A stretch of 50,163 nt of DNA, from assembly GCA_027624555.1 (NCBI GenBank), contig JAQBWN010000003.1:1-50163 (forward strand), given 5' to 3'. The stretch comes from a bacterium. GTDB lineage: Bacteria > Patescibacteriota > Andersenbacteria > UBA10190. Positions 9,516-42,446 of the stretch are shown in pieces (positions within the stretch are counted from its first letter, which is position 1; each line of letters opens with the position of its first letter). The translations under genes were made by a program, and so were the position numbers. The notes under the pieces were generated by a model. It did no database searches, was not told where the DNA came from, and saw only the letters and a program-made list of their open reading frames with translations.

Positions 9516-9546
9516 AAAAAAAACCGGGATCTTGGTAGAAACCCGG
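9516..9546 (-). terminator. Intrinsic terminator downstream of the sORF
   Basis: Minus strand CCGGG-N13-CCCGG-T8. Confidence 0.7.
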
Positions 9547-9575
9547 CGTCCGACTACTGCGCTCTTTAGATTGAA

Positions 9576-9683
9576 CTAACTATAATGATTCCACCTCCAT
9601 ATATCTACCATGATTAAAACGAGCTGAAAACCCACAAGCCCTAATCCACACAACATAGGGATAATGCAACAAATTTCTAGCAT
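9576..9683 (-). CDS. Putative 35-aa hydrophobic small protein (below the ORF-track cutoff)
   Basis: MLEICCIIPMLCGLGLVGFQLVLIMVDIWRWNHYS*; AGAAGG upstream; lies between its own promoter and terminator. Confidence 0.5.
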   Translation of the reverse strand: MLEICCIIPMLCGLGLVGFQLVLIMVDIWRWNHYS

Positions 9684-9751
9684 AGCTTTTTATGCCTTCT
9701 CTCTAATGTTTCAAGAACAAAACTGGTAAACCTATACCAGCCACTCTTTTG

Positions 9752-9780
9752 AGTGTACACCCTATGACCATTTCTGTCAA
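9752..9780 (-). promoter_or_regulatory. Sigma70-type promoter of the sORF cassette
   Basis: Minus strand TTGACA-17 nt-TACACT. Confidence 0.7.
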
Positions 9781-9807
9781 GTGCGACTTTTATAAGCGTA
9801 CAAATAC

Positions 9808-9840
9808 CAAAAAACCCCGCATATAAAGCGAGGTTTTTTG
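9808..9840. terminator. Intrinsic terminator (bidirectional form) after rpsJ
   Basis: CAAAAAACCCCGC-ATATAAA-GCGAGGTTTTTTG. Confidence 0.75.
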
Positions 9841-9857
9841 TCGTAGGCCGTAGCCGT

Positions 9858-9898
9858 AAGCTAATGCAGCTAACGAAGCTATAAGCTAATGAAGCTAG
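9858..9898. repeat. AGCT-unit repeat element, single arm (copy A), abutting the rpsJ stop
   Basis: AAGCTAATGCAGCTAACGAAGCTATAAGCTAATGAAGCTAG, identical to the right arm at 43328-43368. Confidence 0.92.
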
Positions 9899-10246
9899 TT
9901 AGATCGTCTTCATCGAAACATCCACACCTGCAGGAAGATTCAAACTCATAAGAGTGTCTATTGTGCGAGGGGTTGATTCAATGATATCGATCAAGCGTTT
10001 GTGTACGCGGATTTCGTACTGGTCTCGTGCATTTTTATGCACAAACGTAGAACGGTTCACCGTGTACTTTTTCTTGCTCGTAGGCAACGGAGTCGGGCCG
10101 GCAACTTTTGCGCCTTCCCGCTCTACCGCTTCCATAATTTGCTTCGCAGACTGATCGATCAATTTATGATCGTACGCCTTCAGCTTGATGCGAATACGAG
10201 GTGGCACTACCTCTGGAGCTGCTTCTGATTGTACAGTATCAGACAT
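9899..10246 (-). CDS. rpsJ: 30S ribosomal protein S10
   Basis: [40 protein letters not shown] overlap with the tuf stop. Confidence 0.98.
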
Positions 10247-39829: not shown

Positions 39830-40594
39830 TTAAGAATAGAGATTCAATAGTTCTTCTGACAGATATTCGTACGCTCGCGCACCTGGAGACATCCTATCAT
39901 ACTCTAAAATAGTCTTTCCGGTACTGGGCGCTTCCGCTAATTCCGTATTTCGAGGGATGATACTTTCAAACACGTGCCCGGGAAATGTTTTCCGAACCTC
40001 TCGCACCACTTTTCGAGAAAGCGTAGTTCTGCGGTCAAACATCGTTAAGACTGCTCCTAATACTTGCAAACGCGGATTTAAATGCTTTCGTACCAAATCA
40101 ACAGTTGTCAGTAGCTGATGCAGCCCTTCGAGCGCATAGAACTCGCACTGCACGGGAATAAGCAACCTATCTGCAGCTGCAAGCCCGTTAATAGTGAGCA
40201 ACCCTAAACTTGGTGGGCAATCAATTAATATAAAATCATAATTATCTTTTACGGCCTTTAGTGCTCTTCGTAAACGAAACTCGCGGTACGGCTCATCCAT
40301 AAGCTCCATAGCAGCGCCAGCCAAATCAGGAGTAGACGGGATAATATTAAACCGTTCAATGTTTGTAGGCTGAATTACTTCTGCAATAGTTGCTGTACCT
40401 GCCAATAGGTCGTACAAACTCGGCACACCATCAGGAACTCGAATTCCAACGCCAGCGCTCGCATTCGCTTGTGGATCTAAATCAACAAGCAATACAGATT
40501 TTCCAGACTCAGCGAGGTAACTCCCCAGATTAACACTGGTAGTTGTCTTCCCTACTCCCCCTTTTTGATTTACGACGGCGAGTGTTTCTGACAT
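39830..40594 (-). CDS. parA: ParA/Soj ATPase (start re-assigned to MSETL)
   Basis: NQKGGVGKTT, DLDPQAN, IDCPPSLG, PVQCEFYALEG. Confidence 0.97.
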   Translation of the reverse strand: MSETLAVVNQKGGVGKTTTSVNLGSYLAESGKSVLLVDLDPQANASAGVGIRVPDGVPSLYDLLAGTATIAEVIQPTNIERFNIIPSTPDLAGAAMELMDEPYREFRLRRALKAVKDNYDFILIDCPPSLGLLTINGLAAADRLLIPVQCEFYALEGLHQLLTTVDLVRKHLNPRLQVLGAVLTMFDRRTTLSRKVVREVRKTFPGHVFESIIPRNTELAEAPSTGKTILEYDRMSPGARAYEYLSEELLNLYS

Positions 40595-40699
40595 ACAATG
40601 CTTTAAGCATATGCCCATACGCAGCGCCGTACAACCGCTAGTTATGAACAGGGCTAAAAAGTGGCTAAATTCAAAATATCCGTATAAAGTGTAAAACAT

Positions 40700-40783
40700 G
40701 CCGGAGTGGCGGAATTGGCATACGCGACGGACTCAAAATCCGTTGGTCGCAAGACCTTGAGGGTTCAAGTCCCTCCCCCGGCA
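40700..40783 (+). tRNA. tRNA-Leu(CAA), CCA not encoded
   Basis: GCCGGAG acceptor, D arm GGCGGAATTGGCATACGC, anticodon arm ACGGA-CTCAAAA-TCCGT, long variable arm GGTCGCAAGACC, T arm GAGGG-TTCAAGT-CCCTC. Confidence 0.96.
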
Positions 40784-40786
40784 CAA

Positions 40787-41149
40787 CTATCGTCGCATCA
40801 TGCGAATTTGGACTTCTGTATCCGAAATTCGTTTTTCGTGATTTTTCAATATTATAGGATGGTCCTTGGTTTCTTTTGCACGAGCATCTATTGATTTCAC
40901 AACGCTCAAAATGGCCTCTAGAATTTTTCGATGAATTGCCATTTCTTCTTCCGCATTATCAAGCCTTACCTTAACACCAACTATCTCGCCTTTAACACCA
41001 ACTATTTCGTCTTTGACGCCAACTATTTCGTCTTTAACCTCTTCTACTGCGCCCTCAACCTCGTCTATCCTCGATGACAAATGCCCTCCAAGCAATTCTA
41101 GGTCATGTTGAGTTGCTGGCTCATTGCTATTGGTTGCTTTCTTTTTCAT
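40787..41149 (-). CDS. Coiled-coil heptad-repeat hypothetical protein
   Basis: VKDEIVG/VKGEIVG tandem heptads (21-bp DNA repeats at about 40970-41040), C-terminal NHEKRISDTE. Confidence 0.8.
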   Translation of the reverse strand: MKKKATNSNEPATQHDLELLGGHLSSRIDEVEGAVEEVKDEIVGVKDEIVGVKGEIVGVKVRLDNAEEEMAIHRKILEAILSVVKSIDARAKETKDHPIILKNHEKRISDTEVQIRMMRR

Positions 41150-41172
41150 GCATCTATTATATCACAACAAAT

Positions 41173-41199
41173 AAAAAAGCTGACCCCTCTGGATCAGCT
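41173..41199 (-). terminator. Intrinsic terminator after the orphan gene
   Basis: Minus strand AGCTGATCC-AGAG-GGGTCAGCT-TTTTT. Confidence 0.75.
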
Positions 41200-41231
41200 A
41201 TAAAGTTGTTTCGAAATGTACTTCACATTAT

Positions 41232-42338
41232 TCACTCGTCGCCTGACATCCCAAGTTCATCGCGAAGCTCAGAGAGTCGTCGACTTGCACATGCCCAAAG
41301 TGCGTCATCATTAAGACGATGAACGGCTTCGACAAGATTACTCACAAGAATTTCAACTGCATCCATGTCAACAATCACCTCATCAGGATGCGTAAAGGGA
41401 TTCGGAGAATGCCTCATAGCTGGTCCGCCGGTATCCTTTCGCATCATCGTCGCATCGATCTCCCATTGAGCTATCTCATGAGAATTACCTTGAGAAGGAC
41501 GTCGAATTTTCACATTGAATTCCGAACGAACTGCCACGTCAGCAAGTTGCTGCGTGGCAAAAACCAACATCCCATCGCGAACAGCAATCTCCCAGTTGTT
41601 GCGAAATATTCGTGCATGCTCTTCGCCAAGTTGCAGCAAGCCACTAATTCTGTCGATATCCTGCTTCTCCAAAGGAAGCGTTAGTCCTAAAATGTGACTT
41701 TCTGTGCGAGGGATCATGCAAAATTTGCTGAGTCGCGCAAGTAAGTCGGGTGAGATTTGAGTTCTGCTTGGATTCTCCTTATAAAGCGCCTGCGCCATCA
41801 GAAGTTGGTCCAGATCGCGTGCTAATTCCGTTCCACTGAATAAATTTGCATCCAACTTGATCTGAATCTCTTTCCATTGCCGTGCATCGTCCAACATAAG
41901 AAAGAAATGCATTTCCGCCGATGCCCACTCGCCATGCTGGTTTTCTTCGAACATATCGATACTACTTCGAAAACCGATGCACCGCATCGAATTGCACCAG
42001 AGAACAAGGGTGTCGTCAGGTGGAGAATAAAACACCATTCGTGACGTGGAACTCCAGCGCATCTGATAAATTCCATCGTCTGGTCCAAGAACTTTTTGAA
42101 TCTCAATTTTTTTTCCGTTTAGATTGACGTCGGCCATCAACCATTCAAAACAGTCAATCAAGACTTCTGGTCCTTCCTGCTCGACGCGGAAAGTTTCTTG
42201 CTCTGCAAGCTTTTCACACAACTTGTAATCATCCTCCTCGTCCGGGAACAGCTTAAGTTGAGACAATTGTCCAACAGTAAGCGTTGGTACTTTGATCGTA
42301 CTGGCAACTTGTCGAAGAAACAGGTTTGGTGCTAGCAT
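41232..42338 (-). CDS. Orphan hypothetical protein (368 aa)
   Basis: Long ORF with AGGAG SD, own promoter and terminator; no recognised motif. Confidence 0.75.
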   Translation of the reverse strand: MLAPNLFLRQVASTIKVPTLTVGQLSQLKLFPDEEDDYKLCEKLAEQETFRVEQEGPEVLIDCFEWLMADVNLNGKKIEIQKVLGPDDGIYQMRWSSTSRMVFYSPPDDTLVLWCNSMRCIGFRSSIDMFEENQHGEWASAEMHFFLMLDDARQWKEIQIKLDANLFSGTELARDLDQLLMAQALYKENPSRTQISPDLLARLSKFCMIPRTESHILGLTLPLEKQDIDRISGLLQLGEEHARIFRNNWEIAVRDGMLVFATQQLADVAVRSEFNVKIRRPSQGNSHEIAQWEIDATMMRKDTGGPAMRHSPNPFTHPDEVIVDMDAVEILVSNLVEAVHRLNDDALWACASRRLSELRDELGMSGDE

Positions 42339-42446
42339 CTTTCACTCCTAGGTTGTAAAAAACAGGAAAAGCCACAACTACCCAATTATCCATACTTTTA
42401 TCCTCCCGTCAACTGTCAAATAACAAATCAGTGCTACGATATTTTT

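Follow-up and report, generated by a model that had tools for sequence, protein, structure and literature searches.

In Bacteroidia, ordinary Shine-Dalgarno (SD) sequences are absent, and the anti-SD end of the 16S rRNA is held in a pocket of the ribosomal proteins bS21, bS18 and bS6. The gene for bS21, rpsU, is reported to retain a very long SD, which ribosomes without bS21 read (PMC7797042; PMC9976891; PMC13000453). In Flavobacterium johnsoniae, the C-terminal region of bS21 is required for this masking, and SD-like tracts are under-represented at the gene starts of Flavobacteriales, as they are in the genome described below (PMC9976891). Genomes of GeneMarkS-2 group C show a -10 box followed by 6 nt and ATG, which is the signature of leaderless transcripts (PMC6028130). 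Among bacteria of the candidate phyla radiation (CPR, or Patescibacteria), some lineages reportedly have no anti-SD at all (PMC9297842; PMC10783764), and bS6 and bS21 are reported to be enlarged (PMC9297842). In Escherichia coli suhB, a boxA lies shortly 5′ of the ribosome-binding region, a layout by which Nus factors repress the gene (PMC5725501). Here, we compare these systems with a CPR genome of the Andersenbacteria (GCA_027624555.1; 788,059 bases in 38 contigs, 99.47% complete). We focus on six stand-alone transcription units in one entire contig (C8, JAQBWN010000003.1; 50,163 nt, GC ∼0.43; hereafter the window) and on a small class of genes, among them rpsU, that carry long SDs.

A first-pass annotation of the window had described six orphan open reading frames (ORFs), each with its own promoter, SD and terminator and most with a boxA-like leader motif. 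It had proposed that they form a separate expression class controlled by Nus factors and/or SD-competent ribosomes. Our analysis points to a different arrangement. The six units are probably independent, monocistronic accessory transcription units, restricted to the strain or the genus, and do not constitute a Nus regulon; SD use is probably confined to a set of long-SD genes. A separate SD-using class in an SD-blind genome did emerge, with the amendment that its members are other genes than the six units. In the arrangement that we favour, each unit would have a promoter of the sigma-70 type, a leader of 40-60 nt, its ORF and, at the end, an intrinsic terminator, and would lie between core operons. 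Four of the ORFs would encode a putative HExxH peptidase, a DUF2103 protein, the 368-aa orphan and a protein of 59 aa; the other two are putative micro-ORFs. The short purine tracts and boxA-like strings of the leaders occur at background frequency and define no Nus regulon. The units would look unlike core genes because core genes in this genome are nearly leaderless. In genes at the head of operons, only 6 nt separate the -10 box from the ATG, so that transcription would often begin at the start codon or a few bases from it; the starts of internal genes lie in junctions that are poor in G and rich in A/U, with U at -1. SD-dependent initiation would be restricted to about a dozen long-SD genes, including rpsU, both pilins, small membrane proteins and a Lys-rich 54-aa protein.

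The evidence begins with the genome-wide start signals. Genes were called with a simple hexamer log-odds caller (715 genes, 87% of the genome) that places each start at the longest ORF, and all genome-wide start statistics depend on these calls. The 16S rRNA ends in ...GGATCACCTCCTTTCT, with an intact anti-SD. SD strength was calculated as the energy of the duplex with the 16S tail (a 16-nt tail for the six units) and was compared with mock windows or with two controls, one at -68 to -52 upstream of starts and one before internal ATGs. Mean duplex energy was -2.52 kcal/mol at 685 called starts, weaker than in both controls (-3.12 kcal/mol at -68 to -52 and -3.25 kcal/mol before internal ATGs), and the positional profile of SD 4-mers was flat, with no peak upstream of 686 starts. 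Contiguous anti-SD complements of 4, 5, 6 and 7 nt preceded 232, 70, 11 and 3 starts and occurred in 236, 80, 10 and 3 mock windows, or 316 against 329 of 685 in total. Duplexes of -6 kcal/mol or stronger were rarer at starts (10.4%) than in the control windows (15.8% and 13.9%), and those of -8 kcal/mol or stronger made up 5.5-6.4% of cases in the genome-wide controls. Complements of at least 8 nt, on the other hand, were found at 4 of the 685 starts and in none of the mock windows. G falls to 14-17% at positions -12 to -4 of starts. At position -1, U occupies 59% of the 686 starts and G 5-7%. A U at -1 is able to extend pairing with the initiator tRNA. Among operon-internal starts the proportion with U at -1 is 64%, often as CU or UU immediately 5′ of the AUG.

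The genes at the head of operons carry a second signal. Of 323 first genes, 60 have the hexamer TANNNT with its first base exactly at -12, compared with ∼9 per adjacent position; in 46 of the 323 a -35 box is present as well, compared with 11 in a control shifted by 15 nt. The order -10 box, 6 nt, ATG is thus present in about one fifth of first genes and is a leaderless-mRNA signature; we infer from this spacing where transcription would start. The resemblance to group C genomes extends to the position of the Pribnow box, 6-8 nt from the starts of first genes in about one fifth to one quarter of operons. In those genomes, however, the remaining genes are reported to use SD-type sites, and here they do not (PMC6028130). 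The paper names Actinobacteria and Deinococcus-Thermus as group C members, and a word search of its available text found no mention of Parcubacteria or other candidate phyla (PMC6028130). With the SD-scarce CPR lineages this organism shares its affiliation and its few SDs. It differs from the anti-SD-less lineages among them in keeping CCUCC, evidently for use by a few genes (PMC9297842; PMC10783764). The main-text list of SD-scarce organisms with a conserved CCUCC in PMC10783764 includes no CPR member.

The genes that do appear to use the anti-SD were found by scanning 21,657 candidate starts of ORFs of at least 40 aa for SD and mock hits. An excess over mock appeared only when the threshold was strict: 44 against 14 at -15 kcal/mol or below, 15 against 4 at -17 kcal/mol or below and, for ATG starts only at the latter threshold, 12 against 1. 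Eleven of the 12 genes in the resulting class have 8-12 contiguous bases complementary to the anti-SD at a spacing of 4-7 nt, mostly 6; the twelfth, which encodes a zinc-finger protein, has 6 contiguous bases at 12 nt. The other members encode a SHOCT-domain membrane protein, a protein with the transmembrane (TM) helices of a mechanosensitive channel, a type IV pilin, a type IV secretion system (T4SS) pilin, DUF1761 and DUF308 membrane proteins, a 210-aa TM protein, small ORFs of 59 and 41 aa, the Lys-rich 54-aa protein and bS21. Class energies reach -23.5 kcal/mol, and at least 10 other genes carry stronger complements than rpsU, the sole member in the window and the only ribosomal-protein gene with a long SD among those examined. 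The long SD of the membrane-helix protein is kept in all four loci examined (45.9-95% identity). That of the DUF1761 gene is kept in 3 of 4, down to 46.3% identity, and is missing in a 38.6% paralogue; that of the T4SS pilin is kept in 4 of 6. Judged by this retention, and by that of the rpsU tract described below, the long SDs are under selection and conserved to the order level. We infer that SD-dependent initiation exists in this organism but is probably confined to these dozen or so genes. A possible enrichment of membrane proteins in the class was not significant (a hydrophobic segment in 8 of 12 against 292 of 685; p = 0.08). The T4SS-pilin gene (C37:18135-18443 in this genome) occurs in relatives in tandem arrays of 5-9 paralogues, and in the arrays of the genus relatives examined (G007, G012 and G006) the long SD sits on the copy most similar to the query, furthest downstream.

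The ORF of rpsU (26209..26474, minus strand) occupies 26209-26460 (83 aa) and begins with a GTG at 26460, and the SD, AGGAGGTG (26467-26474), is an 8-nt complement of the anti-SD located 6 nt 5′ of the start. The match to TIGR00030 (8e-6, 25.6 bits) is below the cut-off of 28.95, and bS21 chains of solved ribosomes also match the protein. The duplex energy is -14.1 kcal/mol, which is equalled by 0.1% of mock windows. A long SD was found upstream of rpsU in 30 of 30 loci, from the genus to the order, at 6-13 nt from the start in 23 and at ∼33-45 nt in 7; no long SD precedes rpsF or rpsR. The bS21 protein also has a C-terminal extension of ∼25 residues (ER..L.K.G...E plus an aromatic residue) that is conserved in the lineage and lies outside the part aligned to solved bS21 chains. 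The seven loci with a distant SD (L027, L028, L029, L031, L032, L034 and L035) belong to other genera of the family, and several have an inverted repeat between SD and start. This repeat could be a fold that joins the SD to the start, or a regulatory hairpin.

The six units have none of these long SDs. Their ORFs are open where the first-pass annotation placed them, except that the ORF of unit 4 more likely begins at the ATG at 18388, and each unit is followed by a hairpin and U run, weak in units 1 and 3. Unit 1 (9523..9780, minus strand) has a promoter-like TTGACA-17-TACACT (9752-9780), a hairpin (9721-9742), a boxA-like string (9708-9719), a purine tract (9695-9703), a putatively coding hydrophobic ORF of 35 aa (9576-9683) and the weak terminator (9523-9547). 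Unit 2 (11563..12507, minus strand) combines a -10 box, TATAGT (12475-12480), with a conserved leader string (12445-12456), a purine tract (12423-12437), an ORF of 264 aa (11628-12422) and a strong terminator (11563-11596). Unit 3 (12518..12989, plus strand) is transcribed divergently from it, with a promoter TTGACA-17-TATCAT (12518-12546), a boxA-like string (12576-12587), a purine tract (12590-12596), an ORF of 107 aa (12604-12927) and a weak terminator (12954-12989). Unit 4 (18150..18480, minus strand) consists of a promoter CTGACA-16-TATAAT (18453-18480), a purine tract (18397-18404), a charged ORF of 59 aa (18209-18388) and a terminator (18150-18180) that it has in common with the convergent rpmB. 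Unit 5 (31675..32042, minus strand) has a TTGACA (32037-32042) with no good -10 box, a conserved hairpin-rich leader with a boxA-like string (31919-31931), the purine tract AGGAGAGGAG (31880-31889), an ORF of 20 aa (31814-31876) and a terminator (31675-31709). Unit 6 (41178..42412, minus strand), which adjoins a tRNA-Leu gene (40700-40784), shows a promoter TTGACG-16-GATAAT (42385-42412), a boxA-like string (42353-42364), the tract AGGAGTGA (42342-42349), an ORF of 368 aa (41232-42338) and a terminator (41178-41199).

A TTGACA-like -35 box had been ascribed to all six. Units 1, 3, 4 and 6 have promoter-like sites in which 10-11 of 12 positions agree. In unit 2 the TTGACA lies 21 nt from the -10 box, and in unit 5 no -10 box was listed at a spacing of 16-18 nt from the TTGACA. 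Promoter-like sites were not more frequent than in shuffled sequence (20 against 18.8 ± 5.1; 40 against 41.6 ± 7.1), and promoters of the TTGACA/TATAAT type also serve core genes and the rrn operon. Promoter, leader, ORF and terminator is a fair description of the six units; it is equally the anatomy of any stand-alone gene.

The purine tracts did not prove to be a special feature of the units. Their energies in units 1-6 are -8.8, -5.9, -8.2, -8.6, -12.3 and -8.5 kcal/mol, and mock windows are as strong or stronger in 4.5, 18, 6.5, 5.0, 0.5 and 5.4% of cases, so that all but unit 5 are within the mock distribution. All six are anti-SD matches of 4-5 nt, a length class for which starts and mock windows do not differ. 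Of the 60 starts listed in the window, 5 are at -8.2 kcal/mol or below, a share close to the 5.5-6.4% of the controls, and two of the 5 belong to core genes (fusA and the gene at 3713-4084). Family-less genes outside the six units, at 13526, 40787 and 13017 (the last encoding a coiled coil), have no purine tract and leaderless-like starts. The short tracts cannot be told apart from chance, with unit 5 as the best candidate for a real SD.

The boxA-like strings, on which the proposal of Nus control was built, fared similarly. The five strings (units 1, 2, 3, 5 and 6) differ from the E. coli 12-mer used in that proposal at 4, 2, 5, 4 and 4 positions. Sites with 4, 3, 2 and 1 mismatches to this 12-mer number 5159, 795, 79 and 1 in the genome and 5510, 979, 83 and 6 in a first-order Markov simulation. 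Of 170 upstream regions of 150 nt, 35% contain a site with at most 4 mismatches; the figure is 44% for their antisense strands and 37% for 263 coding windows, so that the frequency does not rise above the Markov, antisense or coding background. The organism's own rrn boxes are TGAACGTTGCCAA before the 16S rRNA (C2:23363) and TGAACTTTGACAA before the 23S rRNA (C2:31100), which share 11 of 13 letters; an extra T-rich element 5′ of the 16S box is found in most relatives from the genus. An nhmmer profile of nine genus-level rrn leaders found the genome's rrn leader only (E 2.5e-19), with the next match at 2.6 and none on the window contig. The best match to the own 13-mer in the 100 nt upstream of units 1-6 has 5, 3, 4, 5, 4 and 4 mismatches. 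It coincides with the proposed site in unit 3 alone and falls on the -35-like TTGACA in at least units 2, 4 and 6. The own 13-mer was also considered as the mark of a wider set of leaders and was rejected: with a degenerate pattern built from the four candidate sites, 12 hits were obtained in the genome, of which 8 were non-coding, and the 4 beyond the seeds were not leaders. In G007, the nearest relative, a 7-nt deletion has removed the boxA-like string of unit 5.

The proteins of the units are rare, and neither PADLOC nor NCBIfam returned a family for the orphans. Their presence was scored in a panel of 40 relatives. The 368-aa protein of unit 6 was found in none of them and in 2 other clusters among 5.8 billion. 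A profile search with its alignment against 1.84 billion representatives gave 7 hits, 6 of them additional and none informative, the ESM Atlas gave no usable hit, and the AlphaFold model was unusable (pLDDT 34). The 264-aa protein of unit 2 has homologues in 2 of the 40 relatives and one other cluster among 5.8 billion. It has a HELRH motif that does not vary among 4 of 4 homologues, a weak match to the putative metallopeptidase family DUF6782 and an AlphaFold model of pLDDT 65, for which Foldseek found nothing in the PDB at E ≤ 0.001 and metzincins as the best weak rows. Motif and model together suggest that it is probably a divergent zincin-like zinc metallopeptidase. An assignment to the archaeal DUF5781 (ESM Atlas 0.92, 166 shared features) was set aside, as Pfam did not confirm it even at E ≤ 10. 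The 107-aa protein of unit 3 belongs to DUF2103 (PF09876, 1.4e-7) and is present in 2 of the 40 relatives. The 59-aa frame of unit 4 is likewise open in 2, G007 (55% identity) and G012 (37%). The 20-aa ORF of unit 5 is conserved over its full length in G007 only (74% identity), with the SD, the ATG and the first 4 codons kept and an in-frame indel of 3 nt; its interior folds as a hairpin in both genomes.

The 35-aa ORF of unit 1 lies in the gap between rpsJ and rplC (9320-9898, 579 nt), in a part that is not conserved in G007 or G012. In this gap the tuf-rpsJ group ends with its own terminator, and the remaining S10 cluster restarts beyond it. The middle of the gap holds two unrelated membrane ORFs (125 and 132 aa) in G012 and ∼3 kb in G007. 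The gap was considered as a conserved S10-operon leader; this was dropped, conservation being limited to its two ends.

Several observations weigh against the picture of six unremarkable units in an SD-blind genome. Five of the six purine tracts rank with the top 0.5-6.5% of mock windows in strength, an improbable outcome if the units had been picked without regard to that feature, and the short tract of unit 5 is retained in G007. With hexamer typicality as a stand-in for a homology-based split of orphan and core genes, 14 of 89 atypical first genes have a duplex of -7 kcal/mol or stronger, against 19 of 234 others. The SD excess that had been seen in orphans over core genes is reduced by this comparison to a weak trend (Fisher p = 0.06). 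The string of unit 2 is kept, with one change, in the leaders of its orthologues in G006 and G002, whose proteins are just 39% identical, and lies there at the same distance from a conserved TATAGT. The orthologue of unit 3 in G012 has, in the same place, a 13-mer that matches the 23S box in 12 of 13 letters. This box is not clearly kept in G005, and it occurs in 1 of 25 metagenome loci of DUF2103 homologues, a locus identical to the G012 sequence. The strings of units 2 and 3 lie in back-to-back leaders (12423-12603), and a Nus-type or other leader element on that pair is possible. Finally, the transcription starts are read from sequence, and some called starts will be wrong with a longest-ORF caller.

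These two strings also count in favour of the original proposal, in which NusB-S10 would bind the boxA-like leaders and make the six units a regulon, controlled through antitermination or through translational repression of the suhB type. The genome does encode NusB and S10 (the latter at 9899-10246), and its rrn leaders carry a box before both the 16S and the 23S rRNA. In orthologous leaders the strings of units 2 and 3 keep their distance to the -10 box or the start. They lie just 5′ of the ribosome-binding region, and with 2-10 nt between box and purine tract, and the start after the tract, the layout is like that of suhB (PMC5725501). However, the motif is not enriched, the rrn-leader profile and the extra pattern hits add no further leader, and the string of unit 3 is not conserved beyond the genus. 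The leaders match the organism's own 13-mer with 3-5 mismatches and mostly away from the proposed sites. The strings of units 1, 5 and 6 fail every test, the string of unit 5 being the one deleted in G007, and none of the genes in question encodes a Nus factor. Antitermination would moreover be of little use to monocistronic units of 0.1-1.1 kb. A Nus-controlled class made up of the six units is therefore highly improbable. A recent foreign origin, with the units keeping the layout of an SD-using donor, is compatible with their being independent accessory units and would account for their patchy distribution or absence in relatives. Hexamer scores per residue are low for the 264-aa (0.09) and 368-aa (0.17) proteins, against a typical 0.25-0.4, and the 107-aa gene scored under the caller's hexamer threshold. 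Unit 6 is next to a tRNA gene, the rpsJ-rplC gap varies among relatives, and many DUF2103 homologues elsewhere have strong SDs. Nonetheless, no donor was found, the proteins being nearly without homologues anywhere, neither an integrase nor repeats flank the units, and regional GC is unremarkable. We regard such an acquisition as unlikely.

An alternative of another kind concerns the long SDs rather than the six units, and it complements the arrangement that we favour. Specialised ribosomes of the Bacteroidia type may exist here, with bS21 helping to mask the anti-SD and bS21-less subunits translating long-SD mRNAs selectively, so that rpsU would be autoregulated and a small pilin and envelope set co-regulated with it. 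As in Bacteroidia, the anti-SD is kept although ordinary SDs are scarce and unused, starts have fewer weak and moderate SD-like tracts than controls, and the excess is limited to complements of 8-12 nt. The long SD of rpsU is conserved in the lineage, in all 30 loci, and rpsF and rpsR lack one, as in Flavobacteriales. Its energy is also below -13 kcal/mol, the level that marks the exceptionally strong rpsU SDs of the Bacteroidia type, as obtained by our own duplex calculation and not by the authors' method. In this lineage bS21 has a C-terminal extension, and in F. johnsoniae masking needs the C-terminal region of the protein (PMC9976891); enlarged bS6 and bS21 have been reported in CPR (PMC9297842). 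The likeness, however, is one of sequence, and it spans a different phylum. The residues that contact the tail are described as conserved uniquely in Bacteroidia (PMC13000453). About 12 genes have long SDs here, compared with rpsU alone in Flavobacterium, and rpsU, pairing over 8-9 nt at -14 kcal/mol, is not the strongest in the genome. Adenines at -3, -6, -12 and -13 are not a signal in this organism; U at -1 and leaderless starts are. A free anti-SD that is used by a few highly expressed leadered mRNAs fits the same data, and the depletion of SD-like tracts may just mirror G-poor start regions. Specialised ribosomes are accordingly a tentative reading, possible rather than probable. The more specific version, in which the extended C-terminal tail of bS21 helps to mask the anti-SD on mature ribosomes and bS21-free subunits translate a regulon of ∼12 long-SD genes (rpsU, pilins and envelope proteins), draws on the Bacteroidia analogy and is less likely still. 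If it were true, the maturation state of the ribosome would set the level of the cell-surface and host-attachment apparatus, and a bacterium of the episymbiont type would have its own independent and expanded form of the Bacteroidia mechanism.

The favoured arrangement would make this organism an example of a CPR lineage that has an intact anti-SD and ignores ordinary SDs, with many operons leaderless and long SDs reserved for a few conserved genes. A literature search found no work that links Parcubacteria with leaderless mRNAs, and the CPR Shine-Dalgarno literature, in the available text of PMC9297842 and PMC12641261, does not describe this pattern. In such genomes, gene callers with an SD model would misplace starts and miss small genes. 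It also becomes testable whether Bacteroidia are the only bacteria with anti-SD masking and specialised ribosomes that depend on bS21.

The remainder of the window supplies examples of the leaderless-type start. A ribosomal-protein cluster occupies the minus strand at 1-9319 and is followed by rpsJ, tuf, fusA, rpsG and rpsL, with competence, cell-division and partition genes further along. In rpsL (16789..17223, minus strand), TATAGT (17218-17223) is separated by 6 nt from the ATG at 17211. The same type of start is predicted for an M50 peptidase gene (17243-17905; TAAAAT at 17912-17917), a family-less gene (40787-41149; TATAAT at 41156-41161) and two genes on the plus strand (42447-43268, TACGAT at 42435-42440; 44541-45872, TATACC at 44529-44534). 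Outside the window, prfB (contig C3, ∼18138-19202) is also of the leaderless type, with TATAAT, 6 nt and ATG. It has a CTT TGA C +1 frameshift site after 22 codons, with no anti-SD complement directly upstream; the nearest, GAGGG, is 16 nt 5′.

Intergenic DNA also contains repeat elements. Rfam searches of the whole window, at gathering thresholds and at E ≤ 1, found the tRNA-Leu alone and nothing in the gaps at 9320-9898 or 31503-32025; sub-threshold ‘miRNA’ rows were dismissed as hairpins of an AGCT repeat family. This family is built of 9-10-nt units around AGCT, with ∼41 nt per arm and at least 22 copies in the genome. Copies are found in the window (9858-9898, 14154-14202, 30835-30937, 38556-38665, 43273-43368 and 45878-45975) and on other contigs. 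Most begin -10 to +18 nt from a stop codon, often as long inverted-repeat pairs, and a strict spacing pattern identified 11 arrays, compared with 0 in a shuffle. The copies are probably REP-like terminator or stabiliser hairpins. A second hairpin family (L001 3150-3300) has a 26-nt palindromic core 3′ of several genes, and a short hairpin element at 9439-9478 of the window is common to many contigs of relatives.

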